A stretch of DNA of 64,000 bases from a virus (Duplodnaviria > Caudoviricetes): IMG/VR virus record IMGVR_UViG_3300010262_000137, positions 1 through 64,000 of that record; one strand, 5' to 3'. Under the pieces are notes generated by a model, which was given only the letters and a program-made list of their open reading frames with translations, was not told the DNA's origin and ran no database searches. Position numbers and translations under genes: made by a program. Of the stretch, positions 11,677 through 60,718 are shown piece after piece; position 1 is the first letter of the stretch, and the number at the start of each line of letters is the position of its first letter.

Positions 11677-12261
11677 ATGGAATTATTTTATACTGATTTA
11701 CAATACGCTAATACTTTTCAGGAATATCTTTTGTCAATGATTAATGATCAGCAACAAATGATTGATATTAAAAATAATTATAAAGTTTTTGTGCCTAATA
11801 GAATATATTCAAATAATCTTGAATATAAAAAAACTTTTGAACTTAATGAGAGTAAATATGATTTAGAAGATGGATTTTATAAAATGAAATTGTCTGAATA
11901 CTCTTCATGGGTAGATGAATTTTATTGTCTGATAGAAACAGGTGAAATTAAGCATGTATTATTTGATTGTTGTCAAGTTGAGTATTTGAGAGAATTATTA
12001 GATTTTGAAAATGCGAAGTCTATATTTGTATATGATAATATTAATGATTATCTTTTTGATAAATTTAATCTGAATTATCCTCAAAACAATGATTTACGTT
12101 TTGCATTTGAAACAAATGATATAAATTATATGAAAGAAACCAATATTGAATTTTATGAGGATATGAAATCATGCAGAAAAGGAACACTATTTTTATTAAG
12201 ACGAATGCTGAGACAGGTAGAAAGAGAAGTGGAACAGGAGGAAGATGATCCTGAATTATGA
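11677..12261 (+). CDS. hypothetical protein with acidic tail (EQEEDDPEL)
   Basis: ORF with RBS; acidic C-terminus. Confidence 0.65.
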   Translation: MELFYTDLQYANTFQEYLLSMINDQQQMIDIKNNYKVFVPNRIYSNNLEYKKTFELNESKYDLEDGFYKMKLSEYSSWVDEFYCLIETGEIKHVLFDCCQVEYLRELLDFENAKSIFVYDNINDYLFDKFNLNYPQNNDLRFAFETNDINYMKETNIEFYEDMKSCRKGTLFLLRRMLRQVEREVEQEEDDPEL

Positions 12262-12301
12262 TAAGGCTAGTTAGCCTTTTTTATTTTGAGGAGGAAAAAA
12301 T

Positions 12302-13396
12302 ATGTATGAAAATAAGAATGCAAGACCAATATATGAACCACCACGTAAGATAAAGACATATACAAAAGAAGAAAAAGCTTCAAGGAATGAAATACTTAGT
12401 GAAATCAAACAAAGCCTTCCAATTGTAGAATATGCATCTAACGTTTTAGGTTTAACTATTCTACGATCTAGAAAAGGAGAAAGATACCTAAAAAGCAAAG
12501 AATTATCTTCGCTGGTATTTGATTTGAAAATCAATAGAGTATTCTGGAATAAATATGGTAGTAAGGCACTAGATATCATTGATTTTATTGTACTTTATGA
12601 TGGATGTTCACATAGCGAAGCCATTAATAGAGTTGCTGAATACTATAAGGAGCGTGATCCAAATGCAGTTGAGCTTTTTAATTATGATATTACAGAAGAT
12701 AAAACAACAATATTTAAGGGAATAAAGCTTCCTGAACCATATAAGAATGATGTTATTGCAACAAGCTATCTACTTGAAACAAGAAGAATCAGTGAACATG
12801 TCATTAATAGATTAAGAGAAAACAATATGTTTTATGAAGATAAATATCATAATGCAGTTTTTATTGGATATGATATTGAAAACAATCCAAAATTTGGTGT
12901 GAGACGAGGTACATATCCAAGTGTTAAGTTTCAAAGAGATTGCGAAGGTTCTTATAAAAATTGTGGATTTTTTATAGAAAACAAATATCCAGTTAAAAAA
13001 CTTGTCTTAGCTGAATGTGTTATTGATGGATTAAGCTATTTGTCATTAAATAAGAATCTCATAGATTGTCATGTGTTATGTTCTTCAGGAGCAGGATGTG
13101 TCGCTAATACACTTTGGTTTAATTTGAATACAAGAGAATGTTTAAAAGATGTCGAAGAAATAGTCTGTGCCTGTGATAATGATGATGCTGGCAATCACGC
13201 ATATTTAACTGTAAAAAATTATATAGAAACAAAAAGACCAAATATTAAGCTGACTAAATTTACTGGATATGATGGAATTGATATGTTGCCAAACATGGAT
13301 CTTAATGATGTGTTAAAAAAAGTTAGAGAAAAAGAAGATTCTTATTTTATCAACAAGGAAAGTGAAGAAGAATTGAAAGGGGAAGAAATTGAATGA
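12302..13396 (+). CDS. DUF3991/toprim domain primase-like protein
   Basis: KLVLAECVIDGLSYL and VCACDNDDAG toprim motifs; YLLETRRISEHVI DUF3991-like segment. Confidence 0.8.
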   Translation: MYENKNARPIYEPPRKIKTYTKEEKASRNEILSEIKQSLPIVEYASNVLGLTILRSRKGERYLKSKELSSLVFDLKINRVFWNKYGSKALDIIDFIVLYDGCSHSEAINRVAEYYKERDPNAVELFNYDITEDKTTIFKGIKLPEPYKNDVIATSYLLETRRISEHVINRLRENNMFYEDKYHNAVFIGYDIENNPKFGVRRGTYPSVKFQRDCEGSYKNCGFFIENKYPVKKLVLAECVIDGLSYLSLNKNLIDCHVLCSSGAGCVANTLWFNLNTRECLKDVEEIVCACDNDDAGNHAYLTVKNYIETKRPNIKLTKFTGYDGIDMLPNMDLNDVLKKVREKEDSYFINKESEEELKGEEIE

Positions 13397-14361
13397 GCAT
13401 GTTAATTGAATATCGGACAACTGATGAATTTTTAGCAGAATTAAAAAGTGGAATTTTGAAAACTCAGATCAGCAATTATATTAAGATACATAAAACAGAA
13501 GAAGAAATATTCTCAAATATAGGAATAAAAGCAATAAGCATTGAAAATATATTTGATTTCTTTGAAATAGTTTTTAATGAAAATGATAATTATACATGTC
13601 ATGATTTAAAGCATTCATATGATAATCCATATGTGGACACTGTAAAAAATCTTATACAAGAGTGTTTTAATGAACTGTATCATATAGATATAGGTAAAAA
13701 TGTTTCATTTCAAGATGTTTATTCTAAACTTATTACAATTTATTCTGAAGAAGAAATGAAAAAGGGAAAATACTTGTATGAATTGATAAAATACGATGGC
13801 ATTGATAAAAAACAGGCATCAAGGATATTCGAAGTCAGTAATCGAGCTTATTTGAAAACTGATGATAGAATTTCATTTGATCATATTATTGATACTATCA
13901 AAAATGAATATATGCAAAATAATACATCATTAAAATTCATAGAAAGAATGGATCCTCATAATTTAATAGATGGAATCATCGATGGATGTATAAAAAGATA
14001 CATTCATCAACAATATAGTTATATACAAAAACAAGATGAATACAGCATAAAAGATTGGGAAAAGGATAAAAGGTTTGATGCTTTACCAGGACAAAAAATT
14101 GCTAGAGAAGTTGCTGAATATTTATATAATCATCTACCTCCTTTAAATCTACCTGATTGTGATGTGACAAATATTTATTCATCCGGATTCATGGTGGATG
14201 AGCCATTTTCATTTGATGAATATGGATATCCAATACATCTGGCTTTTGGTTTGAACAATGAACAGTATTATTTTATTGGTCGTCTTTCAAAGGAAGGGCA
14301 TCTTTTAGATCGAGATAATAAAACTGTTGAAGATAATGAAGAAGATTATGAAATGGAATAA
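13393..14361 (+). CDS. hypothetical protein with EEDYEME tail
   Basis: ORF; tail identical to three other genes. Confidence 0.65.
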   Translation: MSMLIEYRTTDEFLAELKSGILKTQISNYIKIHKTEEEIFSNIGIKAISIENIFDFFEIVFNENDNYTCHDLKHSYDNPYVDTVKNLIQECFNELYHIDIGKNVSFQDVYSKLITIYSEEEMKKGKYLYELIKYDGIDKKQASRIFEVSNRAYLKTDDRISFDHIIDTIKNEYMQNNTSLKFIERMDPHNLIDGIIDGCIKRYIHQQYSYIQKQDEYSIKDWEKDKRFDALPGQKIAREVAEYLYNHLPPLNLPDCDVTNIYSSGFMVDEPFSFDEYGYPIHLAFGLNNEQYYFIGRLSKEGHLLDRDNKTVEDNEEDYEME

Positions 14362-14406
14362 GGACGGCAAGTTGCCGTAATATAAAAAAGAAAGAAGTGA
14401 AAGGTT

Positions 14407-15591
14407 ATGTCAAGTATAGATAAAATATTGAAAGAATTTGAAAAAATGCGTTATCAAATGTTGAGCAGATTTCAATCAGATTGTAAATATTATTTAGGGA
14501 ACGGAAATAGATTAACAAAGTATTTATGGGGCTGTGATGAAGAAGAACACATCAACAGCATGATTAAACTTTACGATAGTTTCTCAATTGACGAGAAGCC
14601 AGAGTGGCTTACATTTGATGATATTCTTACGTATGCAAAAGATATGTTAAACGCTCCTTTAAAGTTATCGCAAAATGAATATCTTCAGCACTATGGTTAT
14701 GAAGATTTTTTAAGTGGCTTTTTAGATGATAAGGCAAAGGGAAATCTTCAACTCAAAAGTGAAAAAGGACAACAAAGATTTAAAAAGGAAAGTCTAACAC
14801 ATATCAATAACTATCATGATGAACGACAAAGACTTATCAAACAATATGATTCTCTTGTTGAACAAGGTATTATTATTCCTAAAACTAAACTTGAGATACG
14901 TCTTGAAACTGCAAGAGGGCATTATGAAAATAGAAATGTTCAAGCAACAAGACGTATGTTGCTGAAAACAGGAATCAATTGGCTTACTGGTAAAGAAATT
15001 CAAGTAGATAAGAAAAGTATAGAAAATAAGTTACATCTAACACATGATGAATTTCATGAATATAAGCAAGAACTTGCAAAAAAAATCTGGGGTTCTGAGA
15101 AATATTCAATAAGTGATTTTACAGCGGATTGCAAAAAAGTTGAGGTTATAGGATTTGATTTAGAACAATATCATATACCAGATGAAATTAAAATGATGAT
15201 TGATAGAGATATGTCTACTCATGGCAAATATTGTGATCATGAAACATTCTTTGGATTTATTGAACTTGATGAAGTTGATGGTGTTGCTAGAGAATATCAA
15301 TGTGGGTATGGACTTCCTTATGGGTATTCTGGGTATTATAGAAATAATGAAAACATGATGATTATTAATTACGCTGAAGGAGATTTTAATATTTCCTTAT
15401 ATACAGATAGAAATATATACAACAATGCAGTTATAAGAACTCATAATTTTTATGAAAAATCTAGTTTTTATTATTTTAATGGCAATGTATGGAGTGAAAA
15501 TGAAATATCAAATCAAACAAATAACTTCAGAGATGTGATCTGCATATTTGAATGTGATGATGAAATTGAAGAAAGTGAAGAAATGGAATAG
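14407..15591 (+). CDS. LPD11-domain polyvalent protein with acidic tail
   Basis: RYQMLSRFQSDCKYYLGNGNR...LW...KPEWLTFDDI is the LPD11 signature; ends EESEEME. Confidence 0.75.
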   Translation: MSSIDKILKEFEKMRYQMLSRFQSDCKYYLGNGNRLTKYLWGCDEEEHINSMIKLYDSFSIDEKPEWLTFDDILTYAKDMLNAPLKLSQNEYLQHYGYEDFLSGFLDDKAKGNLQLKSEKGQQRFKKESLTHINNYHDERQRLIKQYDSLVEQGIIIPKTKLEIRLETARGHYENRNVQATRRMLLKTGINWLTGKEIQVDKKSIENKLHLTHDEFHEYKQELAKKIWGSEKYSISDFTADCKKVEVIGFDLEQYHIPDEIKMMIDRDMSTHGKYCDHETFFGFIELDEVDGVAREYQCGYGLPYGYSGYYRNNENMMIINYAEGDFNISLYTDRNIYNNAVIRTHNFYEKSSFYYFNGNVWSENEISNQTNNFRDVICIFECDDEIEESEEME

Positions 15592-15728: not shown

Positions 15729-16217
15729 ATGAGCAGTATTGATGTAGTTGGGATTAGATTAGTCAAGGAACGTGATATTAAGTATGATCGTAAGTTAAAT
15801 AGTGTCGAAGATGCAGTTGAAGTTATAGCAAATGAAATGAAGTATTTAGATAGAGAGGTCATGATGGTTGCTAATCTTGATAACCATAATCGTATTATTA
15901 ACACTCATATTGTAAATGTTGGCGGTATTAATTTTTCCTTTATTGATCCCAAGAATGTTTTTAAAGCTGCTCTTTTAAGTAATGCAACAAAGATTATGCT
16001 TGTTCATAATCATCCAAGTGGCTCTTGCAAACCTAGTAATGAAGATATTCAGATGACAGAGTCTATGAAAAAATTAGGGGAACTTATGACATTACCATTG
16101 CTTGATCATATTATTATTGGAAGTCATAGCTATTATTCAATCACGGCTGATATGGAATATGAATATGATTTATTTGAAAATGAAGAAAGCATTGATTTTG
16201 ATATAGAAATGGAATAG
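15729..16217 (+). CDS. JAB/RadC-like protein with acidic tail
   Basis: DREVMMVANLD, HNHPSGSCKPSNED, LLDHIIIG motifs; ends DFDIEME. Confidence 0.9.
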   Translation: MSSIDVVGIRLVKERDIKYDRKLNSVEDAVEVIANEMKYLDREVMMVANLDNHNRIINTHIVNVGGINFSFIDPKNVFKAALLSNATKIMLVHNHPSGSCKPSNEDIQMTESMKKLGELMTLPLLDHIIIGSHSYYSITADMEYEYDLFENEESIDFDIEME

Positions 16218-17097: not shown

Positions 17098-17928
17098 ATG
17101 AAATCAAGATTTATATTTGACATGGATGGAACTTTAGCAAAGTGGAACTTTGTTTCTGATGAACAGCTATATGAAAAAGATTATTTTCGTAATTTAGAAC
17201 CACACAAGAATATTATAGAAGCTGCAAAACAATTGATGAATGAAGGACAAGAAGTTTATATTTTATCTTGTTATTTGGCAGATAGTGAATATGCCTTGAA
17301 AGAAAAGAATGATTGGCTCGATAAATATCTTCCTGAAATTAATACTAACCATAGACTTTTTGTTCCGTATGGTATGCCTAAGACAGAATTCTTTGAAACT
17401 GTTAAAATGACTCCAATTACATATAATGATTATCTTATAGATGATTATACAAAGAATCTTGAGGAATGGTCAAAAATTGGTGGTACAGGCATTAAATATC
17501 TAAATGGTATAAATAACACTTATGGAACATGGAAAGGTGCTAGAATAAGTAATTTGAACGATATTTATAATCTTTTACATACAATAGAGAATATAAAAAA
17601 CAAAACTCTATTTTATCAGTTTATTGATAATGAGTATTTTGATATTTCAATCATTCCTAAGGATAAGTTTGTTTACAAAGTTGGTATTATGAACAATCAA
17701 AAAGATAATTTTTTTATCTATTCATACCAGCAAACTAATAATCTAGAACTTCATCATATTGGATATATAATATCAGATAGAGATGTTATTCAGGATGCAT
17801 TTCATTTAGGAATACTGGATAACAAAGATGATAAATTAACAATGCTGTCTCTGAGTAAAATGTATGGTGGACTATTCCCTGATGATCTTATTCATCATGA
17901 AATAGAAGAAGATTATGAAATGGAATAA
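17098..17928 (+). CDS. HAD-family 5'(3')-deoxyribonucleotidase-like protein with EEDYEME tail
   Basis: FIFDMDGTLA motif I, YILS motif II, LIDDYTKNL motif IV, WxxxGGTGIK. Confidence 0.8.
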   Translation: MKSRFIFDMDGTLAKWNFVSDEQLYEKDYFRNLEPHKNIIEAAKQLMNEGQEVYILSCYLADSEYALKEKNDWLDKYLPEINTNHRLFVPYGMPKTEFFETVKMTPITYNDYLIDDYTKNLEEWSKIGGTGIKYLNGINNTYGTWKGARISNLNDIYNLLHTIENIKNKTLFYQFIDNEYFDISIIPKDKFVYKVGIMNNQKDNFFIYSYQQTNNLELHHIGYIISDRDVIQDAFHLGILDNKDDKLTMLSLSKMYGGLFPDDLIHHEIEEDYEME

Positions 17929-18408: not shown

Positions 18409-19113
18409 ATGAACTTAAAAAATATTACAGATGAAAAAAGAAATAAAGAAATCATGGAAAAAGTTATACCTTGCTTTGAAGCTTATAGAATGATTAAAAT
18501 GAGCAATGGTAAGATTGTTATTATCAATATTGAGGATTGTGGTATATCGGAAAGTGAAATAAATGAGGAGTTTATTAAAAATAATGATGAGTTTCTCACA
18601 ATTTATGAAAACTATACAGCTGCACTTCAAGATTGGTTAACTGATATACAGACAGATATCAAAGATATAGGACTATATTCAGATAATGAATATAGTTTTT
18701 ATTTAAGTAAAATCGAATTAGAATATTTGGGATTTGAAGAAGAAATATTGAAAACGGAATACTTACCAAATATACATGAAGAAATAAAAAATGAAACTTT
18801 TAATTATCTAGAAGTAGAACAAAATATTTTTGAATTTGCAAAATCAGAAACTAGAAAAGCTGGTTATGAACTTCTACAGGTAATGAAGTATAGTAATCAT
18901 CCAGAACATAATTATTTATATTTAGTAATAGCACATAGAGAAAATGCACTAGAAGGATATAAATATGTATCCTGGATTATGAATGACAGAGGATTGGATT
19001 TAGGAATATATTCAAATTCTTTTAAAAAATGTTTACAAAATACAGCTGATAGAATGAATGAAATGAATTTTGAAAACGAATTGGAAAGTGAAGAAGATTA
19101 TGAAATGGAATAA
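18409..19113 (+). CDS. hypothetical protein with EEDYEME tail
   Basis: ORF with RBS directly after a palindrome. Confidence 0.65.
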   Translation: MNLKNITDEKRNKEIMEKVIPCFEAYRMIKMSNGKIVIINIEDCGISESEINEEFIKNNDEFLTIYENYTAALQDWLTDIQTDIKDIGLYSDNEYSFYLSKIELEYLGFEEEILKTEYLPNIHEEIKNETFNYLEVEQNIFEFAKSETRKAGYELLQVMKYSNHPEHNYLYLVIAHRENALEGYKYVSWIMNDRGLDLGIYSNSFKKCLQNTADRMNEMNFENELESEEDYEME

Positions 19114-19155
19114 GGACGGCAACTTGCCGTATTGATAGAAAGGTGGATTAAAAAT

Positions 19156-19950
19156 ATGAAATTTAAAATGGAAGATATTGTACTGTATTTTTCTTTGAAG
19201 TATGATGGAGAGTTCAATCAGATATATGAATCAATATGCAACAAAGAACAAGTTGATGAAGTGGAATTTAACCAGCTTGTATCACAAGTTAATTCACAGT
19301 ATACAACAATCTTTAGTGATGATTATCCTAAAGCATTAAGACATATAGATAACCCTCCATTTGTTTTATATTATTATGGAGATTTATCTTTGATGAATAA
19401 AAAAACAATAGCTGTAGTTGGAATGAGAGAACCAAGTGAATATGGAATTAGAGCTACTGATCTTGTGTCAAAAGAACTTGCTGAAAATGGATATACTGTT
19501 ATAAGTGGCTTGGCAAAAGGTATAGATACTATTGCTCATGAAACAGCAATTAAGGCTGGCGGTAATACAGTTGCTGTATTACCAACAGGAATTGACAACT
19601 GTTATCCAATCCATAATAAAGAATTATATAAAAAAATGAAAGAAAGTCAGCTGATCGTAAGTGAATACCCATCAATGACTCAGCCAAGAAAACACACATT
19701 TTCGTATAGAAATCGAATTATTGCTGGTTTGTCTGATAGTATTTTAATATCGGAATGCAAGGAAATGAGTAGTAGTCTATTAACGGCTTCGTTTGGAATT
19801 GAACAAGGTAAGGATATATATGCTATACCTATTGCTATTGATAGCCCCAATCAAGGAAGCAATTCACTAATTAAAAATGGTGCATTTACTTTTACTTGTG
19901 TAGAAGATATTCTAGAACAAGAAATAGAAAGTGAAAATATATTAGAATAA
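19156..19950 (+). CDS. dprA: DprA/Smf DNA-protecting protein with acidic tail
   Basis: PPFVLYYYGD, IAVVGMR, VISGLAKGID, RNRIIAGLS, GSNSLIKNGA motifs. Confidence 0.9.
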   Translation: MKFKMEDIVLYFSLKYDGEFNQIYESICNKEQVDEVEFNQLVSQVNSQYTTIFSDDYPKALRHIDNPPFVLYYYGDLSLMNKKTIAVVGMREPSEYGIRATDLVSKELAENGYTVISGLAKGIDTIAHETAIKAGGNTVAVLPTGIDNCYPIHNKELYKKMKESQLIVSEYPSMTQPRKHTFSYRNRIIAGLSDSILISECKEMSSSLLTASFGIEQGKDIYAIPIAIDSPNQGSNSLIKNGAFTFTCVEDILEQEIESENILE

Positions 19951-19991: not shown

Positions 19992-20780
19992 ATGGAAATA
20001 CTACGTATTAAAGAAAATATAAATCAGCTGTTAAAATATGCCAAAAATCATACAGCAGAAGAAACAGAAAACTTTATAGAAGAATTGTTTTACGATGAAG
20101 TTAAAATTGAACAGAATATTAATCAAGCTTATTATAAGATGAATACCAAGAATTATTTAATCAATAATGGAAATGGACTTAAAATATCTATAAATAAAGG
20201 TCTAGGAGATATTCTTGAAAAAAATCATTCTCATCAGGGTATTACTATATCTATTGGTTCTGAATTTCTTCAAGAGTATGAATATCTTTATGATGCAAAT
20301 GAATATAACAATAATATTGATATTTCTCATATGATTGACAATGCTTTAGAAAATGAAAATATACTTTTAGCAATAGAACAATACTTTGCTGGAGATGATG
20401 TTGACTTGAATATGTATCATATTCTTTCTCAAGAATTGAAGGATAATCAAGAAATTATTGATAATGTCATTAAAAAAATTGATTTATATTCTCGATTGGA
20501 ACATGAAAATCAGAAAAATTATGAAGATATATCACCTAATGGGGGATTGGATATCATTGTTCAGCCTGTGCAAGAAATATTTCTTCAAAAGTTAAATGAA
20601 ATAGATGTGTTAGGTAATGAGAAGTTAGTAGCTGCAACTATAGATTTTTTTGTATCTAATCAAGAAAACATAGACTATTTAAGTAGTGAAATTGATAGAT
20701 GTGAAAGGATTTTGTATTTTGCTGAGCATGCTGATGAATATATGCAAAACAAAGCGATTGAGTGTAAAATCATTAATCAA
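19992..20780 (+). pseudogene. 5' part of a 567-aa tailed gene interrupted by the prophage
   Basis: Reads ...KIINQ up to the left ATCAA target copy and rejoins in frame with 56248-57162. Confidence 0.85.
20776..20780 (+). repeat. left 5-bp target site duplication (ATCAA)
   Basis: ATCAA directly before TGTAA; the same 5-mer follows TTACA at 56243-56247. Confidence 0.9.
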
Positions 20781-21326
20781 TGTAAGTTATCAAATAGAAT
20801 AGAAAATATTTACAGTGAAAAATTAAGCTGAAAAAATCCGTAAAAATCCGTAAAAAGTTAAAAAAAGCCCATAAAATCGTGCAATTTTGAGTAAAATTAC
20901 TGTAATACCATGAAAAACAGTAATTTTTATTTTGCAACAAAAAAATCGTAAAAAATGGGCATTTTTGAAGAATAATCGGATTTTATAAAAATAATGAAAA
21001 ATGACCTTTTAACAACCTTTTACTACCTTTTAAATTTAAAGCAAAAAAGTCAAAAAACACCGATAAATAAAGGCTTTTTGACTTTTAAAAGGTAGGTTTT
21101 AAACTTTTAAAAAATTTAAAAATCTATGTATAAAAATCTAATTGTTAAAAGGTAAAAAATGAAATCTCACTGTAAGTTTTTAGGTTTTTCACTGTAAATG
21201 CTTGAAAATCCCCATTTTATCGGCTTTTTTTGACTTTTCAAAAACCTTTTAACAAAAATGGATTTACAGTGAGATTTTTAAGAAAATGATTAATTTTCAC
21301 GTTTCTTAAAAGGTGATTTTAAGCTA

Positions 21327-51052: not shown

Positions 51053-51056
51053 TCAT

Positions 51057-51130: not shown

Positions 51131-51640
51131 GTGGTAATGATGGATAGTCAATTAGGATTGTATGAGACTCAGCTTGTCATACAGCAGGAGGTTTATGATA
51201 TGTTACTATATGCCTATCCGTTGTTAGATCATTTTCCAAAGAGTCAAAAATTCTCTTTAGTTCAAGATATCAAAAGAAGTATGGATTTAGTTCTTAAATA
51301 TGCAATTACTGCTAATAAAAAATACAGCAAGACTACAACGCTTGAAAAAATGGATGTAGAACTAGCTGCTTTAAAGGTTTATATAAGATTAGCATTTGAA
51401 TTGCATTTTTTTAAAGGCGAAAAGCACTATATGGAAATGTCTCGAAGATTAGATAAAGTCGGCAAGATGTTAGGTGGCTGGATTAAGGCTGAAAAAGAAA
51501 AATCAGGGAATAAAGCTATTGAAAAAACATATGTTTGCGAGAAATGCGGTGCAAAAATAACTCCTAAATCTTATGAATATTCAATAAGGAATTTTGGTAA
51601 ATCTCTTTGTTATGCATGTCAAAAAAGTCATAAGGATTAG
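51131..51640 (+). CDS. avd: Avd accessory protein with C-terminal zinc-finger extension
   Basis: FPKSQKFSL, LKVYIRLA, VGKMLGGWIK four-helix-bundle motifs; CEKC...CYAC tail. Confidence 0.88.
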   Translation: MVMMDSQLGLYETQLVIQQEVYDMLLYAYPLLDHFPKSQKFSLVQDIKRSMDLVLKYAITANKKYSKTTTLEKMDVELAALKVYIRLAFELHFFKGEKHYMEMSRRLDKVGKMLGGWIKAEKEKSGNKAIEKTYVCEKCGAKITPKSYEYSIRNFGKSLCYACQKSHKD

Positions 51641-51653
51641 ATGAATAGTGAGA

Positions 51654-51719
51654 ACTTTTCGTGTTGGCGTTGGATTCTGTACGCTTTGGCTCTGCTCTCC
51701 GAGAGGTTTTCGCTCCGCT
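51654..51719 (+). repeat. TR-like unit R0 (internally deleted, 66 bp)
   Basis: Keeps CTTTTCGTG 5' and AGGTTTTCGCTCCGCT 3' ends but is 42 bp shorter. Confidence 0.7.
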
Positions 51720-51761
51720 CTATTCTTTTATGCTATTTTGGGATTAGGCTATTAGCGTTTG

Positions 51762-51869
51762 CCTTTTCGTGGTGGCTCTTTCAATAATTCTAGCAATGCA
51801 GGCGTGTTCGCTTTGAATTTGAACAACCCACGCTCCAACACTTGGAACAATCTAGGTTTTCGCTCCGCT
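51762..51869 (+). repeat. template repeat R1
   Basis: 108 bp colinear with VR; 9 AAY codons. Confidence 0.9.
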
Positions 51870-51900
51870 TTATCCTTATGGGATTAGACTATTATGAAGA

Positions 51901-52008
51901 CCTTTTCGTGGTGGCGCTTTTTGGGAGCATTCGAATGCAGGCGTGTTCGAATTGAATCTGAATAACCCACGCTCTTATGCTGACAATGATAGAGGTTTTC
52001 GCTCCGCT
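51901..52008 (+). repeat. template repeat R2
   Basis: 108 bp colinear with VR; 5 AAY codons. Confidence 0.9.
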
Positions 52009-52049
52009 CTAACCCAATAAAGAGTAATGGGATTGGACTATATGAATTG

Positions 52050-52157
52050 CCTTTTCGTGGTGGCAATTGGAATAACGGAAGCAATGCAGGCGTGTTCGCT
52101 GTAAACTTGAATAACCCACGCTCCAATTCCAATCACAATGTAGGTTTTCGCTCCGCT
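52050..52157 (+). repeat. template repeat R3 (most canonical TR, adjacent to the spacer)
   Basis: 108 bp colinear with VR; 10 AAY codons. Confidence 0.92.
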
Positions 52158-52320
52158 CTGCTCTTGCAATTAGGTATATGATGGATACGTCTGTCATTTC
52201 AAATCAAGGGAATAAAGGAGTCTAATTCCATGCTGAACAAGCAAAAAAATATATAAAGATGAAAACCGATTGTAATGTTAAATGAACTCCGTTAAGCATC
52301 TTAAAAATTAGGTGATGATC

Positions 52321-53475
52321 ATGGCGAAAATAAAGAATGTATATGACTATATCGTTAGTGATGAAAACATATACAATGCTTATTTGAACGCTCGCAAAAG
52401 CAAAAGATATAGAAAAGATGTACTCATATTTACTCAAAATCTATAAGCAAATCTAGTTAAGATTCAAAATGAATTAAGAAGCGAAGTTGTTGATTATCCT
52501 AAATATAGAGAGTTCTATATTTACGAACCAAAGTGTCGCTTGATTCTTGCTCAAGACTTTCCTGAAGTGATAAAACAGTGGGCGTTTTATCAAGTTTTAA
52601 GTCCTATGTTTACTAGGATGTACATCAAGGATTCTTATGCATGCATTAAAGGAAAAGGACAAATTGCAGCAATTAAAAGGCTTCATTATTGGCTTAAATT
52701 GGTCAATAGCAAAAGATACAATAAACTGAAAAACGGTTTAGATGTATCTGATTTAAACAAGTGGTATTACTTGAAAATAGACTTTAGCAAATACTTTTAT
52801 AGAGTAGATCATAAAGTCATGATTGATGCATTGAAGAAGAAAATTAAAGATGATCGTGTTGTTAGATGGCTTGAAACACGCATAGAAAGCCCTGATATGC
52901 CTTTTGGATTACCTAAAGGCATGCGTCCTGAAGATGTTGAAATGAGTGAACGTTTATATGATAAAGGAATGCCAGTAGGCGCTTTGGTTTCACAAATGTT
53001 AGCGAATGTTTACAATGATCAGATAGATCAATATGCTAAAAGGACATTAGGAATTAAGTATTATATACGCTATCAGGATGATATTGTGGTGCTTTGCGAT
53101 GATAAGAAACAAATAAAAGAATGGCATCATAAACTAGAGAAGTTCGCAAATGATGTCATGAAAATGGAAATGAACCAAAAGACCTGTATTAGACCAATCA
53201 ATCAAGGGATAGAATTTTGTGGTTTTCGCTTATGGGCTACACATATTAAAATAAGGAAAAGCACTTCCTTGAGAATTAAAAGGAACTTAAAAGGCGTGAT
53301 GAAACGATACAATGAAGGAGATTGTACTTTAGAACACGCTACGCAAGTAGTTAATTCATATTTTGGACTGCTGAAACATTGTAATAGTTATGCATTAAAA
53401 ACTGAAATATTTGGTGATTATGAAAAAGGAATAGATGGTTGGTTTGTACTGACTAGAAATCAAGGTAACGATTAA
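52321..53475 (+). pseudogene. DGR reverse transcriptase with in-frame TAA at codon 42
   Basis: MAKIKNVYDYIVSDENIYNAYLNARKSKRYR...NL*ANL...YEPKCRLI, YLKIDFSKYF, PVGALVSQ, YIRYQDD; stop at 52444-52446. Confidence 0.88.
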
Positions 53476-53565
53476 TTTCGTTACCTTTTAATTATGTTTT
53501 AAAGTTCTTTATTTTTCGACTTTATTTATTTTATATAAAATGTGCGATGAAAGGAGGAATATATA

Positions 53566-53940
53566 ATGGATATTTCAAAAACAACATCATTACTATTATT
53601 ATTAATCGTTTTTGCAGTGTTGATTCAATTTATCGTTGAACGCTTAAAAGCAGTCTTAGGTAATAAGGTAATGAAGTATCTACCAGCGGATGTATTGGCT
53701 GCATTATTAGGTATTTTGTTTGCATTTATGTTTAGCATTGATGTATTCAAATACTTTGATTTGAATGGAACAATTCCATATGTTGGCAATATTATTTCAG
53801 GTTTGATTATTTCAGCTGGAGCACCTGCTATTCATGAGTTTATTGCTAATATTCGTGAACAAAGAAAGTTACTACAAGATTCTATCTCTACTGGAGCGGT
53901 AGAACCATTAAAAAAAGTAGGAGGTAAAGAAAATGAATGA
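53566..53940 (+). CDS. holin-like protein
   Basis: Three TM segments, GLIISAGAPAIHE, directly upstream of the lysin. Confidence 0.7.
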   Translation: MDISKTTSLLLLLIVFAVLIQFIVERLKAVLGNKVMKYLPADVLAALLGILFAFMFSIDVFKYFDLNGTIPYVGNIISGLIISAGAPAIHEFIANIREQRKLLQDSISTGAVEPLKKVGGKENE

Positions 53941-54024
53941 AGATGTAAAAGATATTGTAATTACTTCAGAAATGGAAGAAGAACTTAACACTATGGGAAA
54001 AGGTGAAGAAGGAAGTGATGAATA

Positions 54025-55008
54025 ATGGATTGGAAAAACTTAAATGCCGATGTCAATAAAATCATGAATAAACACTATACTAAGGGGCGTTCAGGACGAA
54101 AAATTGATAAAATAATCATCCATTATAACGCAGGTGATTTAACTGCAGAAGGATGTTATTCTGTATGGCAAAACAGAGCAGCTTCGGCACACTATCAAGT
54201 TGAATCTTCAGGTCGTATTGGACAATTGGTTTGGGATGGTGATACAGCATGGCATGCTGGCAACTGGGATGCCAACTGTTCAAGTATCGGAATTGAACAT
54301 GCAAATAAAGCAGGTGGATATATTAGTGAAGCATGCTTAGATGCAGGAGCTCATTTAGTTGCAGCATTATGTAAGTATTATGGATTGGGACGTCCTAAAT
54401 GGAAGGTAAATGTATTCCCTCATAATCATTTTGCAGCTACATCTTGTCCTGGTCGATTACAGGATGAGCAAAGAGATGCTTATATGCATAAAGCTCAACA
54501 ATGGTATGATCAAATGGTGAATGGGGTTGAAACTCCATCTAAACCAAGCGAACCATCTACAGGTAAAAAAACTAATGAGGAAGTAGCAAAAGAGGTTATT
54601 GCTGGCAAATGGGGTAATGGAAATGAACGTAAGAGCAGTTTGACAAGTGCTGGATACGATTATAATGTTATTCAATCGTTAGTAAATCAAATGTTAGGAA
54701 TTCCAACGTCTGATCCAAAACCAACAAAAACTATTGATCAGTTAGCGGATGAAGTTATTGCTGGCAAATGGGGTAATGGTGAAGAACGTAAAAATCGTTT
54801 AACCAAAGCAGGATACAATTATGATGCAGTTCAAGCGAAAGTTAATCAAAAATTACATGGAGTAAACAGTAACAAGTCCAATGAAACAATCGCTAGAGAA
54901 GTTATTGCTGGCAAATGGGGTAATGGAGCTGAACGTAAGAACCGATTAACAGCTGCAGGATATAACTATGATGCCATACAAAGTATTGTGAATAGTTTGT
55001 GTAAATAA
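54025..55008 (+). CDS. N-acetylmuramoyl-L-alanine amidase with three CW_7 repeats
   Basis: IIHYNAG, SAHY, AWHAG, SIGIE, ATSCPG; three EVIAGKWGNG.ERK..LT.AGY repeats. Confidence 0.92.
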   Translation: MDWKNLNADVNKIMNKHYTKGRSGRKIDKIIIHYNAGDLTAEGCYSVWQNRAASAHYQVESSGRIGQLVWDGDTAWHAGNWDANCSSIGIEHANKAGGYISEACLDAGAHLVAALCKYYGLGRPKWKVNVFPHNHFAATSCPGRLQDEQRDAYMHKAQQWYDQMVNGVETPSKPSEPSTGKKTNEEVAKEVIAGKWGNGNERKSSLTSAGYDYNVIQSLVNQMLGIPTSDPKPTKTIDQLADEVIAGKWGNGEERKNRLTKAGYNYDAVQAKVNQKLHGVNSNKSNETIAREVIAGKWGNGAERKNRLTAAGYNYDAIQSIVNSLCK

Positions 55009-55082
55009 TTTGTAGGATAGTAGGAATGCTATCCTACTCTCCTTTTCATAGCAATGCCCTTTGTTTGAAAGGAGAGATAAAA

Positions 55083-55838
55083 ATGAATAGTTTTATACCA
55101 TGGATTGGTGGTAAAAAGTTACTTAGAAAAGAGATATTAAACAGATTTCCAAAAGAGCAACCATCTCGCTATATCGAAGTGTTTGGAGGTGCAGGGTGGG
55201 TATTATTTGCGAAGGAACAAAATAGTAAGCAATTAGAAGTATTTAACGATCTCAATGGCAATTTAATTAACCTATATAGATGTGTTAAATATCATGCTCA
55301 GGAAGTCCAAAAAGAATGTGAATTCTTATTGAATTCTAGAGAGTTATTCTTTGACTATAAAGAACAAATTGACATTAAAGGTTTGACTGATATACAAAGA
55401 GCAGCTCGTTTCCTATATATTATAAAAGTATCATTTGGAGCAGATGGTAAAACTTATGGCACAAATGCTAAGAATATTTCATATTCAATTAATATGCTTC
55501 CGATGATTAGCGAACGACTTAATAGAGTTGTTATAGAAAATAAAAGCTATGATAACCTCATTAAGGTATATGATAGAGATAATGCTCTATTTTATTTAGA
55601 TCCACCTTATTATAAGACTGAAAAGTATTATGGTAATTTGTTTGCTGAAGATGATCATATTAAATTAAGAGATATTCTAAAGGATATAAAAGGTAAATTC
55701 ATTCTATCTTATAATGATTGTGAATTTATAAGAGAGTTATATTCAGATTTTTATATTGAAGAGGTAGAAAGAAATAACAGTCTTGTAAAAGATGGTAATT
55801 CAAAATATAAAGAATTGATTATAAGAAATTACAAGTAA
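55083..55838 (+). CDS. Dam-like (D12 class) adenine methyltransferase
   Basis: PWIGGK, YIEVFGGAG, FYLDPPYY. Confidence 0.9.
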   Translation: MNSFIPWIGGKKLLRKEILNRFPKEQPSRYIEVFGGAGWVLFAKEQNSKQLEVFNDLNGNLINLYRCVKYHAQEVQKECEFLLNSRELFFDYKEQIDIKGLTDIQRAARFLYIIKVSFGADGKTYGTNAKNISYSINMLPMISERLNRVVIENKSYDNLIKVYDRDNALFYLDPPYYKTEKYYGNLFAEDDHIKLRDILKDIKGKFILSYNDCEFIRELYSDFYIEEVERNNSLVKDGNSKYKELIIRNYK

Positions 55839-55918
55839 AATATCAAAATACGATATAAAATATCAATAATGTTATAGCAATGCTTAGAGTGTTAAAATTC
55901 ACTTAAAGGGGCGTTGCT

Positions 55919-56128
55919 ATGGCGATTAAAATATGCTTGTCTGATATACTAGGAAAGAAGAAAATGACTCAGGCAGAGCTTGCTAGAAAGACGGGTATTC
56001 GACCTAATACAATTAACGAAATTTATTGGGATATGGTTGATAGAATTAGTCTAGAACATATTGAAAAAATATGCTCAGTTTTGAATTGTGAAGTGTGTGA
56101 TTTAATCAAAATAACAAGTATAAAATAA
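55919..56128 (+). CDS. Cro/C1-type HTH protein
   Basis: KMTQAELARKTGIRPNTI...LEHIEKICSVLNC. Confidence 0.85.
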   Translation: MAIKICLSDILGKKKMTQAELARKTGIRPNTINEIYWDMVDRISLEHIEKICSVLNCEVCDLIKITSIK

Positions 56129-56242
56129 GTATTAAAAAAGGACATTTACTTGGCGTTTAAAAGCCTGTTAAAATGTCTTTTTTTAAACCTATTTTTTTTC
56201 ATTTTATTTGCAACATTTTTGCGTTTTGCGTGCAACATTACA

Positions 56243-56247
56243 ATCAA
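56243..56247 (+). repeat. right 5-bp target site duplication (ATCAA)
   Basis: Follows the TTACA phage end. Confidence 0.9.
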
Positions 56248-57162
56248 GAATTAGAAATTCAAAATTTTGAAAAAGAAGATTATATTACTCAATTAGAAAG
56301 TATTAATACAAGTTTGAAGGATAGTGAACTGGAACAAGAGAAAAATACAAAAGAATTAATACGTTTAAATATAGAAAAATATGAATTAGAAAATAAGAAA
56401 TATAATTTTATAAGTTTTGTTACTCAAAGATTTTCTGATATGAATAAAATAAATGAAGTTAATAGTTTAATTGATAATCTTACAAAAGAACAGTTAAAAT
56501 TAAGTCGTGAATATTATGAAATGAGTGAAATAAAGTCAATTATTGAGATGGAAATTGATATTATCAATGACTTGAAAGATAGTATTAAACAACTTAAAGA
56601 TGATAAACCCAAACTTAAATATCGTTATGATTATTTATTAAGGGATCTATTTTGGCATTTCTCAGATGAACCAGAGAATTTTAAAGAATCTGTTTCAAGG
56701 CAGGTCAATGCTAAAGATAACATTAAAAATTTAAAAAATAAGTATGAAAAGATTCTAAGTTACGCTAGTGAACAAAAAAAACAAGATATGTATTTTTCAA
56801 ATATCATAAGCACTTTATGTAATAATGTATGGTATGGTAGAAATCCAACTGAGATTGCATTAACAGACGGAGAGAATTTAATTCATATTGAAGGTTATAC
56901 ATTTGAATACGGTTATGAACAATTTATGCCTACAGTATCAATTTCTTTAAATGAAAAAATGTTGTATAGTAAGAATATTTATAACAAAGGAATGTTTGAT
57001 GATTTAGATAAGGCTATTCAAGAATTAAAGAAGAATATAATTTTTGATAATTTAGTGGTAAAAGAACATCAAGAAGAATTCCACAAAACACAAATATCTA
57101 AAATGGGTTTCAGTGAATCAAATGAGAAAGATGGCATAGAAGATGAATATGAGATGGAGTAA
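56248..57162 (+). pseudogene. 3' part of the interrupted tailed gene (ends EDEYEME)
   Basis: ELEIQNFEKED... continues the frame of 19992-20780. Confidence 0.85.
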
Positions 57163-57208: not shown

Positions 57209-57940
57209 TTGAATGAACAGATATCCATATTTGATTATATTGAAGATGATTTATTAAAACCAGATGAAAGATATGTCATAACAAAAGAAGAATTAAATCA
57301 AAAGAAAAGTAATTTTACAATGAAGAAATTAACATACATTTATGTGCTTATTAACAATCCTAGAGAATACTGGTATCGTAACGAAACATTAGCAAGATTA
57401 AATGATCATTACATATATAGTAATGGTTTCATAGAATATTTTGATAAAGAATCATCAGCAACTGCATTTTATAACAAAAGATTAAAAGAACTTGATGATT
57501 TATATATTGAAAATCAGAATATTAAAGAAGAAGATAATTGCAAAAAGAATGATGTTGTTTATTTAGAATATGAAAATAATTTTATTTTTCAGAATAATGT
57601 TTACCTTTCTTCCGAACCGGATGACAAATCATTTGTTCCCTTATGGCATTCTAACTGTATAGGCTATTGGGGATTATATCCTTCATATTATGATAAATTA
57701 TCAACTGATGATAAAGTTATATTTTGCAAGGAACATTTAAATAAAAATTTAAAAGATATTTTAAGAAATATAGAATATAAACCACCTATATATTACATAG
57801 ATTTAAAAAAATATGATATTCTTTTTAAAGAGTTAATGGCTTTAGGATATAAAGATGATGAATTTTATGAAAATCATCTTACCCAAGATTTTATTGATAG
57901 TGAACTAGCTGAAGAACAAGAAGAATTAGAAATGGAATAA
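57209..57940 (+). CDS. hypothetical protein with acidic tail (EQEELEME)
   Basis: GGAGGAG RBS after a palindrome. Confidence 0.65.
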   Translation: MNEQISIFDYIEDDLLKPDERYVITKEELNQKKSNFTMKKLTYIYVLINNPREYWYRNETLARLNDHYIYSNGFIEYFDKESSATAFYNKRLKELDDLYIENQNIKEEDNCKKNDVVYLEYENNFIFQNNVYLSSEPDDKSFVPLWHSNCIGYWGLYPSYYDKLSTDDKVIFCKEHLNKNLKDILRNIEYKPPIYYIDLKKYDILFKELMALGYKDDEFYENHLTQDFIDSELAEEQEELEME

Positions 57941-57976: not shown

Positions 57977-59029
57977 ATGAATAAAACAATACAGATGAAT
58001 TTATTTGATTATTTTATGGATGATCCAAGCTTTACAATTCCGCAGGCAACTGAAGTTATAAAAGAGATTAATGAAATGTCTGTAAACAATGAATCAATAA
58101 GAGCAAGGATTTATGAAGGCGTAGATAAAGGTATATTTGAAAAAATATCAAGAGGTGTTTATAAAGTCTGTTCTCAAATCAATGGAAAGGAAACTTCATG
58201 TCTCTTGATTAATGGTGATGGTAGAGATTTAAGTATGATAGCTGATAATTCTATAGATGGAATTGTTACAGATCATCCATATTCTTTAAAAAAACAACTA
58301 AAGGGAGGTAATAGAAATTTTGCAAAGTATGAACTGTTTAGATATGAAAAAAGAGATTTTAAAGAAAAGATGCGTGTTCTTAAGGATGGTGCATTTCTAG
58401 TTGAATTTCTTCCTGAAGAAAGCGAAATTAACTATGAATATCTTTATGAAATCAAGCAATTAGCCAGAAGTGTCGGATTTACCTATTATTCAAAAGTTTC
58501 TTGGACTAAGGGAACGTTTAAAGCCAATACTGGTAGAAAAACGTCTAACAGTGAAGATGTTCTTATTCTTTCTAAGGGTAAGCCAAGAACATTGAGATTA
58601 TATCAGAAGAAGAACTTACAAATTGCAAGAGATAATGGTCTGAATGTTAAAGGGCTAACTTCTGAAGAAGTCGGAAATATTTTAATGGAAAATGGATTAG
58701 ATGTTTATTATATGTCAGGAACAAACGGAATGCTGCCTACTGAGTTCAATTTTCAGCCACGATCCAAAAATCAAAAGATTATGGAAGCTGAAAAACCAGT
58801 AGAATTATTAGAAGAAATTATAAATTATATTTCTCGACCGTATGAAGTTCTTTTAGATCAATATGGTGGAAGTGGGAATTTTGGTGTTGCATGTCTTAAC
58901 ACTGACAGATACGGAATACTCATTGAAAAAGATAAAGAAATCTATGAAATGATGAAAAGTAATATTGAGATGTCTGTTTCTGACATGATGGAAGAATTTG
59001 AAAACGAAGAAGATTATGAAATGGAATAA
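57977..59029 (+). CDS. N6/N4 DNA methyltransferase-like protein with EEDYEME tail
   Basis: GIVTDHPY (motif IV variant), EKPVELLEE, LLDQYGGSG (motif I variant); beta-type order. Confidence 0.75.
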   Translation: MNKTIQMNLFDYFMDDPSFTIPQATEVIKEINEMSVNNESIRARIYEGVDKGIFEKISRGVYKVCSQINGKETSCLLINGDGRDLSMIADNSIDGIVTDHPYSLKKQLKGGNRNFAKYELFRYEKRDFKEKMRVLKDGAFLVEFLPEESEINYEYLYEIKQLARSVGFTYYSKVSWTKGTFKANTGRKTSNSEDVLILSKGKPRTLRLYQKKNLQIARDNGLNVKGLTSEEVGNILMENGLDVYYMSGTNGMLPTEFNFQPRSKNQKIMEAEKPVELLEEIINYISRPYEVLLDQYGGSGNFGVACLNTDRYGILIEKDKEIYEMMKSNIEMSVSDMMEEFENEEDYEME

Positions 59030-59061
59030 GGACGGCAAGTTGCCGTAATTGGAGGAACGTT

Positions 59062-59445
59062 ATGAAATCAATTGAAAAAGAAACAAAAATAAAATTCTTA
59101 AATCCTGAAAGGATTTTTTTAGAAGATGAAGAATCACATGATATTCATCTTGAAATAGAAATGCGTGAAGGCAAAGATATCTATAACAAGACCGCAATAT
59201 TTATTGCATATGTTGGTGGAGAAGATGAAAATAAAGCTAGATATGCAGTTTTGTCAATCTATGATGTAGAATGTACAACAAAGGAAGTGAAACTAGAACA
59301 TGATGACTTATTAAAGGTTTTTGCTGAAGAAATAAGCAAAGATCTGATTACAAAGATTATTATCACTGATTCTATGTTAGAGAGTAACATGGAAATGTTG
59401 TTTGAAAGCGAAGAAAAAGTGGAAGATGATTTAGAGGTCTGCTAA
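59062..59445 (+). CDS. hypothetical protein with acidic tail
   Basis: GGAGG RBS; ends EEKVEDDLEVC. Confidence 0.6.
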   Translation: MKSIEKETKIKFLNPERIFLEDEESHDIHLEIEMREGKDIYNKTAIFIAYVGGEDENKARYAVLSIYDVECTTKEVKLEHDDLLKVFAEEISKDLITKIIITDSMLESNMEMLFESEEKVEDDLEVC

Positions 59446-59604
59446 TTACGGCAACTTGCCGTAATGATTAGGGAGGAAACAAATGTGTATTTTCCTCAAT
59501 ATATTTATATATTTTATAACAATATAAAAAATAATATTCATTAGTCTAGAAATGAAGAACAAATGTATATAGAATGGTGTTATAAAGAAAAGGAGGTGTT
59601 CATA

Positions 59605-59835
59605 ATGCCATTAGAATTAAATGAAACTGAATTAGAGTTAGAAAAACCTATCCTAGTAGAAAACACAACAAAGGAACAAAGAATTGAAATAGTAAAAAAA
59701 GGTATGGCTTTTGCTAATATTAATTCAAGTAAAGAATTGACTCTTGATATGTATGATGATTATATCGAAGGAAGAAAAGAATTAAGAGAAGTCGTTAATA
59801 CAATCATTGAAGGATTGGTGAACGAAAATGAATAA
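59605..59835 (+). CDS. small putative Fic antitoxin (VbhA-like position)
   Basis: Overlaps the Fic start; MYDDYIEGRKEL helix. Confidence 0.45.
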   Translation: MPLELNETELELEKPILVENTTKEQRIEIVKKGMAFANINSSKELTLDMYDDYIEGRKELREVVNTIIEGLVNENE

Positions 59836-60718
59836 TATCTTTTATCCAAATACTTCAGTATTGAAAAATAAGTTAAATATTAAAGATAACAAAAGATTGA
59901 ATGCTATTGAAAGTCAGATAGTCATGCACAAAAAAACAATAATAGATCAAGTGATGAACATATCGCATGGCAATGATTTTAATATGGAAAGATTAAAGGA
60001 TATACATCATTTCTTATTTGATGATATTTATGATTGGGCTGGTACATTTAGAACAAATGATATATATAGAACTGAAGAAGTTCTAGGTGGAAAGACAATG
60101 TCATTTACTGAAAGTAATCAAATTGAAAAACAACTTTTACAGATTATGAAATATTACAATTCTCCAAGATGGAATTACCAAGATATTTCAGATGAAGTAA
60201 AGCTACATGGATGGATGGAGTTGTTAAGTAACTTGTTTCAAGTTCATATGTTTAATGAAGGTAACACTTATACAAGTGTTGCTTTTGCTTTACAGTTTGC
60301 TGATAAAGTTGGATTACAATTAAATAAGGAATACTTTTTTGAAAACTCAAAATATTTAAGAGATTGTCTTTGCTTATACTGTAATGGCGAAGGAACAAAT
60401 CTTATGTCTTTTGTTTCTCAAGCATTTCAGCAAGAAGCTAGTCCAAATCTATTAGAACTAAAGAGTAATATTTTTGAAAAAATGACAATACCAGAAATAA
60501 ATAAAACTTTTGATTCATGGTTGCAGGAATATAACAATCCAATTATTAACAACTATATTCATGTTAATATGAGAAAAGTTATAGCAGCTATGCAAGAAGA
60601 ATCATATTCATCTATGGAACTAATCAAAGAAAAGTTTATGACAGTTGTAGATGATCTGCTAGATCATGATTTTAGAAATGAACAATTTAATGAAATCGAA
60701 GATAACGAATTAGAATAA
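59828..60718 (+). CDS. Fic-domain protein with acidic tail
   Basis: YPNTSVLKNKLNI, IHHFLFDDIYDWAGTFRT, HMFNEGNTYT. Confidence 0.85.
   Translation: MNNIFYPNTSVLKNKLNIKDNKRLNAIESQIVMHKKTIIDQVMNISHGNDFNMERLKDIHHFLFDDIYDWAGTFRTNDIYRTEEVLGGKTMSFTESNQIEKQLLQIMKYYNSPRWNYQDISDEVKLHGWMELLSNLFQVHMFNEGNTYTSVAFALQFADKVGLQLNKEYFFENSKYLRDCLCLYCNGEGTNLMSFVSQAFQQEASPNLLELKSNIFEKMTIPEINKTFDSWLQEYNNPIINNYIHVNMRKVIAAMQEESYSSMELIKEKFMTVVDDLLDHDFRNEQFNEIEDNELE

Follow-up and report, generated by a model that had tools for sequence, protein, structure and literature searches.

A shared acidic tail on unrelated proteins

Why should a RadC/JAB protein, a nucleotidase-like protein and a DNA methyltransferase (MTase), encoded in a single run of genes, end in nearly the same short acidic peptide? 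The question is raised by IMG/VR record IMGVR_UViG_3300010262_000137, a single contig of 86,154 nt whose first 64 kb (positions 1 to 64,000) form the window analysed here. The genes concerned belong to a co-oriented run at 11.7–20.8 kb and 56.2–61.4 kb with a prophage in between, hereafter the island. The window is best explained as holding the cargo/establishment island of a gut-bacterial conjugative element from Erysipelotrichales-type Firmicutes. The initial annotation had listed about 14 island genes with acidic ends and had proposed that the shared ending is a tag that delivers establishment proteins by way of a secretion system of type IV (T4SS) during conjugation.

The canonical endings were found as listed (Table 1): four proteins end in EEDYEME, the product of the gene split by the prophage ends in EDEYEME, and EEME, IEME and LEME close three more. 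The looser acidic ends were recovered for the genes starting at 11677, 12302 and 59062 and for those of the DprA-family and Fic-domain proteins, but the product of 16258–17064 is acidic only upstream of its last residues. Across the whole 86-kb contig, 8 of the 18 island open reading frames (ORFs) end in EME, compared with 0 of 49 in the prophage, as had been claimed, and 0 of 32 in the backbone (0.017 expected from composition; Fisher p = 2.6e-7). Over the last 10 residues, island ORFs have a mean net acidic charge of +4.4, prophage ORFs one of +0.4 and backbone ORFs one of -0.3 (Mann-Whitney p = 1.5e-8); the charge is at least 4 in 13 of the 18 island ORFs versus 4 of the 81 others. Asp and Glu account for 48% of residues in the final 12 positions versus 16% in the protein bodies, and Lys and Arg for 5% versus 12%. 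One related island contains eight copies of the corresponding DNA pattern, GAW-GAW-NNN-GAR-ATG-GAR-stop; a search of 400 other Erysipelotrichales genomes (~850 Mb) turned up a single one.

The bearers belong to different families. The assignments to RadC/JAB, NT5C/HAD, DprA, N6_N4 MTase and Fic hold, and the island also encodes DUF3991-Toprim, LPD11 and LPD24 proteins and a Pol-beta-type nucleotidyltransferase. Several further island proteins have no assigned family, and NCBIfam gave no name for six tagged or partner proteins. Both halves of the prophage-split gene align to one 562-aa protein of a related genome, as expected if they once formed a single gene. That such families normally lack a tail, another point of the initial annotation, agrees with ordinary RadC homologues and most MTase homologues being tail-free.

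Pfam domains stop 10–25 residues short of the C-terminus in the tagged proteins, and the RadC alignment shows the tail to be an extension. In the AlphaFold model of the RadC protein, the block-mean predicted local distance difference test score is 75–97 up to residue 150, 59 for residues 151–160 and 49 for residues 161–162, with no secondary structure past residue 145. The tail is thus placed at the extreme C-terminus, outside the folded domains, and is predicted to be disordered. Stop-codon read-through into a polyprotein was ruled out, as more in-frame stops follow within a few codons.

Related elements carry the tail and a T4SS

The delivery proposal presupposes a T4SS on the parent element, and the same contig encodes one. 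Past the window lie genes for two giant surface proteins, taken to be adhesins, and then, at 79–85 kb, for a VirB6-like protein, a VirB4-like ATPase and an NlpC/P60 hydrolase; the contig ends in an IS110 transposase. The best NCBIfam match of the VirB4-like ATPase is the Mycoplasma integrative and conjugative element (ICE) type, and VirB4 and VirB6 are both most similar to Mycoplasma ICE families. Relatives of the element add a VirD4-type protein and a relaxase.

These relatives were reached by pattern and homology searches. No near-identity match to either island half was found among PLSDB plasmids, and a strict pattern of the tail and the hairpin that follows it, with 3-nt spacing, had no match in the genome or viral contig collections. 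A variable-gap version of the DNA pattern retrieved one metagenome-assembled genome (MAG) and two likely chance matches, plus one likely chance match in the JGI metagenomes. The closest RadC homologues (45–55% identity) also carry appended acidic ends (DDLEM, EIEMDK, EEMSMEI and IEESFEL); ordinary RadC proteins end directly after the JAB domain. A RadC homologue led to L004, a metagenomic contig of 53.7 kb with a syntenic island, in which (I/V/M/L)-E-M-E ends 7 of 16 complete island proteins and others have looser ends (IEIE, YELG, LEM). Its tails are mostly followed by GGCAA(G/C)TTGCC, and the contig encodes a VirD4-type coupling protein (P0134).

The Erysipelotrichales MAG has an island of ~25 kb with ~30 co-oriented genes. 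Eleven of its proteins have canonical EME ends (EDMEME six times, EEDYEME twice, and DDIEME, EDLEME and EEEME once each), a twelfth gene ends in LEMG, and TAAGGCAA(G/C)TTGCCTTA with a T-run comes after each tail. This single 25-kb island holds all 13 palindromes and 11 of the 16 EME-stop strings of the 2.8-Mb MAG. Genes for VirB6, VirB4, an NlpC/P60 protein, a CD1115-family VirD4-like protein and a MobP/MobL-type relaxase lie on the same contig and strand.

Two more distant elements, G083 and G220, whose Toprim protein is 31% identical, use a different dialect of the tail (EMEL, ELEL, EMEI, DIEL, CMEL and RAME), each time followed by TTAAGGCA-NNN-TGCCTTAA. The bearers there are DUF3991, LPD11+DUF4314, ArdC-N+peptidase+LPD25 and SNF2/MTase proteins and proteins of unknown family, and in G083 a VirD4 gene lies on the same contig and strand. 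The contig of a further RadC relative, L006, has the acidic ends IEMDK, LKLDR and DEIEL directly adjoining a VirD4 gene. A T4SS was present on every tail-bearing element whose contig was long enough.

The elements arrange their cassettes in different orders and combine domains differently. One MAG protein of 359 residues (L009:3896-4975, minus strand) joins the HAD domain of the window gene at 17098 to the C-terminal domain of that at 13393. Orthologues vary at their ends: the MTase, with bodies 67–76% identical, ends in EEDYEME, EEDMEME or DEIQELS, and the DUF3991-Toprim protein in YEEMEVE in the MAG and in RAME followed by a hairpin in L038. The elements encode their own SSB (a protein that binds single-stranded DNA), which adjoins the island and ends in DDDIQF or DDEIQF.

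Selection on the peptide

The island ORFs of the window, L004 and the MAG were pooled into a set of 60, which contains 26 canonical tails. Their consensus, counted back from the C-terminus, is E(-7) E(-6) D(-5) hydrophobic(-4) E(-3) M(-2) E(-1). In six of the final seven codons the third base has the highest nucleotide entropy (0.24, 0.39 and 1.21 bits for the three bases at position -5), and the last codon is GAG instead of GAA in 5 of 24 cases, matching the 17% background. Position -4 is filled by Y (8), M (7), I (4), L (4), V (1) and E (2), that is, by a hydrophobic residue in 24 of 26 tails, with codons that have no fixed shared base. A single reading frame is used in 26 of 26 tails, while none of the 60 ORFs ends in an alternative-frame reading of the module.

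The peptide can also be separated from the DNA around it. The L004 DprA protein ends in DDMEME with no hairpin behind it, and P0002, an LPD11 homologue of 49% identity, ends in IEMK in an unrelated DNA context, again without a hairpin. The EMEL dialect shifts the EME codons by 3–7 nt against the stem. The acidic run reaches upstream of the DNA that the genes share and there differs among orthologues, yet stays acidic. Because of the third-position variation, the kept frame, the hydrophobic residue at -4, the separability from the hairpin and the position as an add-on outside the domains, the sequences indicate that the tail is selected as a peptide. The initial annotation had made the tag depend on constraint at the amino acid level, and this constraint is what the tails display.

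A hairpin behind the stop codon

All 13 perfect copies of the palindrome CGGCAA(G/C)TTGCCG, which the initial annotation had not connected with the tail, lie inside the island (14365–61453), with zero elsewhere on the contig. Ten of them start 2–12 nt past a stop codon, and eight of these lead straight into the next ribosome-binding site (RBS); the copies at 18376, 60773 and 61441 start 48, 54 and 18 nt past the stop. Behind the 3' half of the split gene (56173–57162), whose tail uses different codons (GAG twice), the distance is 12 nt instead of the usual 2–4. A compensated variant, AAGGCTAGTTAGCCTT with a T-run, follows the first island gene at 12263–12278. Across elements whose proteins share only 30–60% identity, the core GGCA-NNN-TGCC is kept, which suggests that it is recognised by its sequence and is more than a terminator stem.

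In the MAG and L004, 9–10 of the 12 nt behind most copies are T, and in both the last Glu codon and the stop belong to the stem or the A-tract of a terminator-like hairpin. In the window, T-runs follow only 3 of the 13 perfect copies (at 16221, 57945 and 61442) and the variant at 12263, while the rest run into the next RBS. The palindrome resembles KorB sites in its 13-bp length and its central G/C; an RNA hairpin is nevertheless the better fit than a ParB/KorB operator, because the copies are placed right after stops and have T-runs in the relatives. A scan for promoters and terminators gave no special signal except the hairpins. Its sigma-70 part showed no enrichment (83 sites versus 76 expected), which ruled out the tail codons as a promoter, and a genome-wide repeat of the repetitive extragenic palindromic kind was ruled out by the confinement of all MAG copies to the island. 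In L006 (7650-7680 and 8785-8815), a different repeated hairpin, GGAACTCAGTTCC with a T-run, follows two acid-tailed genes, suggesting that the gene-end design recurs with other stems.

A candidate export signal and its rivals

On this comparative evidence our tentative reading is that the tail is a docking tag common to the C-termini of these proteins, one that most likely serves recruitment to the T4SS; we hold this to be possible rather than probable. Unrelated proteins (primase-like, RadC, DprA, MTase, HAD, LPD11/24, ArdC-like, SNF2 and Fic) would dock onto one shared partner through the tail. The likeliest partner would be the substrate receptor of the element's T4SS, whether the VirD4-type coupling protein itself or another protein that binds it, because the tag sits on proteins expected to act on incoming DNA or on the recipient, is missing from the partition and T4SS proteins, the relaxase and the small Fic partner, and always occurs with a T4SS. 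Ready-made establishment and anti-defence proteins would then enter the recipient alongside the DNA, while the conserved junction DNA also acts as a patch of homology at which cassettes are exchanged and genes converted. The components of such a scheme have precedents: acidic Glu-rich C-termini bind DotM in Legionella (PMC5802825), conjugative T4SSs of the F, IncN and IncP types carry numerous plasmid and host proteins over to recipients (PMC8406263, PMC11288057), one delivers the Fic toxin VbhT (PMC5675462), and the domains of 'polyvalent proteins' have been proposed to be delivered with DNA (PMC5512222). A bolder version, in which (D/E)(D/E)(D/E)-hydrophobic-E-M-E-COOH would be a portable and sufficient export tag read by a Gram-positive/Mollicutes-type coupling protein, with the hairpin making the cassettes swappable, appears doubtful to us.

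Several observations weigh against export. The relaxase, the one certain T4SS substrate, has no tail. C-terminal signals of conjugative T4SSs are mostly positively charged or hydrophobic (PMC11288057), and the acidic type of signal is known from the Legionella type IVB secretion system (T4BSS), where DotM is the receptor (PMC5802825). Protein delivery would be unnecessary if the recipient expressed the island early, as a leading region. Further points come from the DNA. Among the 60 pooled ORFs, 23 have both tail and hairpin, 3 only the tail, 7 only the hairpin and 27 neither (Fisher p = 2.4e-7), a strong linkage. Junction strings are identical within an element, and each element has its favoured tail (EEDYEME four times in the window, EDMEME six times in the MAG). 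Tails without a hairpin are less canonical (EMEVE, EMEEI, LVME, DMEV). Linkage and homogenisation alike could come from a DNA-module process. Finally, an orphan ATGGAATAA with its hairpin stands at L004:7490-7516, ~90 nt past the SSB gene, with no ORF entering it, and represents either the decayed end of a cassette or a sign that the module can exist as DNA alone.

A tail remnant of another kind was seen in the MAG, where LEDEEDLEME-stop without a hairpin follows the stop of a 262-aa gene in another frame (contig 82165-82205, L009:2165-2205), from either a frameshift or an assembly error. The window orthologue of this gene (16258–17064) is also untagged.

The peptide might be a tag with a use other than secretion, such as a degron, a docking site for a hub (SSB-coated single-stranded DNA or the relaxosome) or a DNA-mimicking auto-inhibitory tail. 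All the evidence for selection on the peptide applies equally here, many of the bearers act on DNA, an SSB is encoded beside the island, and establishment functions need to be rapid yet transient (PMC8708921). We consider such a use unlikely, since the SSB tips of the elements are unlike the tail and enzymes that do not act on DNA, Fic and HAD, are tailed as well. For the degron in particular, two further points count against it: we know of no acidic C-terminal degron in bacteria, and acidic ends usually weaken recognition by ClpXP.

Alternatively, the functional unit might be the DNA or RNA hairpin, terminator-like or bound by a protein, and its flanks, spreading among cassettes by recombination and gene conversion, with a functionless peptide arising wherever an ORF runs into the module and is closed by its built-in stop codon. 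The initial annotation had itself named junction recombination as an alternative. The linkage and the orphan described above speak for it, as do the 13 perfect palindromes, the core shared between divergent elements, the identical 24-nt tail strings, the homogenisation of tails within an element while cassette order is shuffled between elements, and, in L004 and the MAG, the inclusion of the last Glu codon and stop in the stem or A-tract. The junctions at 17066–17107 and 59030–59071, which join unrelated genes, are almost identical from the palindrome over the RBS and ATG to the first codons (MKS), which points to exchanged cassettes or gene conversion. Hairpin linkage and homogenised junction DNA thus stand, but the process alone does not explain the peptide-level signature: the constant frame with no alternative-frame endings, the three-base periodicity of the variation, a position -4 limited only by hydrophobicity, the acidic run that continues beyond the shared DNA, the register shift of EME in the EMEL dialect, the existence of both hairpin-less tails and tail-less hairpins, and the IEMK retained in another DNA context. 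We judge a functionless by-product to be distinctly unlikely. Because the junction DNA would act as a homology patch for exchange, identical nucleotide strings and tail-hairpin linkage are to be expected, and in our view the 3' module, which comprises the tail codons, stop and hairpin and in many cases the next RBS, is also a recombination and gene-conversion patch that shuffles cassettes and homogenises tails. A peptide tag and junction recombination are not exclusive.

Least probable by far is a cis-acting translational element, in which the acidic nascent tail and the hairpin-buried stop would slow termination and so control hairpin folding and, through it, transcription termination, mRNA stability or re-initiation 15–30 nt downstream. 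The stop lies inside the stem or 2–5 nt before it in most copies, the next RBS follows within ~10–20 nt, and acidic runs can destabilise translating ribosomes, which counts in its favour; arrest peptides are usually register-specific, though, and here EME stands at varying distances from the stop (EME, EMEL, EMEI, EMG, EMEEI, EMEVE, IEMK, LEM), the tail is kept where the hairpin is absent, and the promoter and terminator scan found nothing special besides the hairpins.

Gene content of the island and its surroundings

Table 1. Island genes, palindromes and prophage of the window.
Feature	Position	Strand	Remarks
194-aa ORF, no family	11677..12261	+	loose acidic end EEDDPEL; variant palindrome at 12263-12278
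DUF3991-Toprim primase-like protein	12302..13396	+	loose acidic end EELKGEEIE
322-aa protein, no family	13393..14361	+	tail EEDYEME, coded at 14338-14361
Palindrome CGGCAA(G/C)TTGCCG, first of 13 perfect copies	14365..14377	.	0.17 copies expected
Other 12 palindrome copies (starts)	15594, 16220, 17069, 18376, 19117, 19955, 57175, 57944, 59033, 59449, 60773, 61441
LPD11-domain protein	14407..15591	+	tail ESEEME
RadC/JAB protein	15729..16217	+	tail DFDIEME, beyond the JAB fold
NT5C/HAD nucleotidase-like protein	17098..17928	+	tail EEDYEME; only a degenerate palindrome, ~17931-17947
LPD24-domain protein	18409..19113	+	tail EEDYEME
DprA-family protein	19132..19950	+	loose tail ESENILE; orthologues end in DDMEME, DDIEME
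Prophage-split island gene, 5' half	19992..20831	+	aligns to residues 6-281 of the 562-aa MAG protein
Inserted prophage	~20832..56172 (boundaries approximate)	+	GC ~35%; tail on 0 of 49 ORFs
Prophage-split island gene, 3' half	56173..57162	+	tail EDEYEME; aligns to residues 296-539 of the 562-aa MAG protein
243-aa protein, homologue of the L004 DUF4116 protein	57209..57940	+	tail EELEME
N6_N4 DNA methyltransferase	57977..59029	+	tail EEDYEME after the catalytic domain
127-aa protein	59062..59445	+	loose tail EDDLEVC
Small protein overlapping the Fic gene start	59563..59835	+	untagged; kept in all three islands
Fic-domain protein	59828..60718	+	loose tail EDNELE; orthologues end in EDMEME, EEMELFQ

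The GC content is ~27% outside a block of ~35% at roughly 21–56 kb; the prophage contains a 642-aa ORF at 23558–25486. On the 5' side of the island are genes for a sigma-region-4 protein, ParA, a ParB-N protein, a CAAX protease and a short tyrosine recombinase. Just 5' of the island, two small ORFs of 112 and 109 residues (10326–10993) abut with overlapping stop and start and may form a toxin-antitoxin pair. Within it, a Pol-beta/MNT-type nucleotidyltransferase (18010–18327) stands without a HEPN partner; the relatives have both. The small protein encoded at the start of the Fic gene is possibly a Fic antitoxin or inhibitor.

The giant surface proteins (1800 and 1975 residues; contig 63907-76460) sit between the island and the T4SS, and both have a C-terminal hydrophobic stretch and a short basic tail resembling a wall anchor. 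Just 5' of them, at 62371–63624 in the window, a 417-aa protein with Big_2 and CAP domains is encoded. Two membrane proteins of the T4SS have strongly basic ends, KRKKTKRKGKTLKQKTN in one of 135 residues (L002:4609-5016, contig 81109-81516) and NRGGKR in the VirB6-like protein (L002:2894-4609, contig 79394-81109), and their MAG counterparts are also basic-tailed. To see electrostatic partners of the acidic tags in these ends is pure speculation.

Comparison with known systems

The nearest likeness is the E-block of Dot/Icm substrates in Legionella and Coxiella (PMC5802825), which also consists of Glu-rich, net-acidic, unstructured C-termini on many unrelated T4SS-linked proteins. The E-block, however, is a loose compositional signal ~10–17 residues from the end, serving a Gram-negative T4BSS with eukaryotic targets, whereas here hydrophobic-E-M-E stands sharply at the very end of proteins of a Gram-positive/Mollicutes-type conjugative T4SS, with bacterial recipients and a putative receptor. 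The co-transfer of SSB, PsiB and ParA/B by the F plasmid pED208 (PMC8406263, PMC11288057) is alike in that plasmid establishment proteins travel with DNA. Its substrates have heterogeneous signals, C-terminal or internal and mostly positive or hydrophobic, with no shared heptapeptide known; nor was a shared heptapeptide signal for Gram-positive conjugative systems found in the literature searched.

Bartonella VbhT/VbhA (PMC5675462) likewise pairs a conjugative-element Fic protein bearing a C-terminal add-on with a small untagged upstream partner. The add-on of VbhT is a BID domain of ~100 residues with a positive tail, in contrast to the short acidic tail here, and no Pfam match to BID was found on the Fic or the other scanned island proteins. 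Polyvalent proteins (PMC5512222), for which a role in the recipient has been proposed, share the domain repertoire beside a T4SS (LPD11, LPD24, LPD25, DUF3991-Toprim, RadC, ArdC-N, MTase and SNF2), but there it forms one giant processed polypeptide and here mostly separate small proteins, each with its own tail.

At the DNA level, integron attC arrays also consist of co-oriented, mostly promoterless, unrelated genes in shuffled order with a palindromic repeat between them. The attC sites are imperfect repeats of 57–141 nt (R''/L''/L'/R'), whereas the palindrome here is perfect and 13 nt long, ~19–24 nt with its flanks, and ORF ends with a conserved peptide in a fixed frame are a feature of this island and not of attC. 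A tyrosine recombinase of 235 residues is encoded upstream, at 6758–7465, ~4 kb from the island.

The SSB tip (D-D-D-I/L-P-F) and the tail by which F TraD binds TraM are, like the tag, short acidic tails with hydrophobic anchors used for docking a partner. The tag differs in ending in Glu, in having its anchors at -4 and -2 and in being carried by many unrelated proteins instead of one hub; the SSB-type ending (I/L)-(P/Q)-F is absent from it, and it closes with E-M-E.

Protein substrate choice by conjugative T4SSs is poorly defined, chiefly in Gram-positive systems, and the known signals are diffuse. A seven-residue consensus on more than 25 unrelated proteins from several elements would make this choice directly testable. 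If the export reading is true, some elements would deliver a whole establishment and anti-defence toolkit as protein, complementing the model of early leading-region expression, and a small tag would be at hand for protein delivery between gut Firmicutes. In the bolder version, Gram-positive conjugation would have in the tail its first defined linear secretion signal. No description of the tail and hairpin was found in the literature searched, so that the gene-end design, a peptide tag and a conserved hairpin at each 3' end, is undescribed there whatever the function of the tag. The tail belongs with the C-terminal acidic targeting motifs, among which it has an unusually sharp consensus, a Gram-positive/Mollicutes-type conjugation system and a coupling to a conserved cassette junction.

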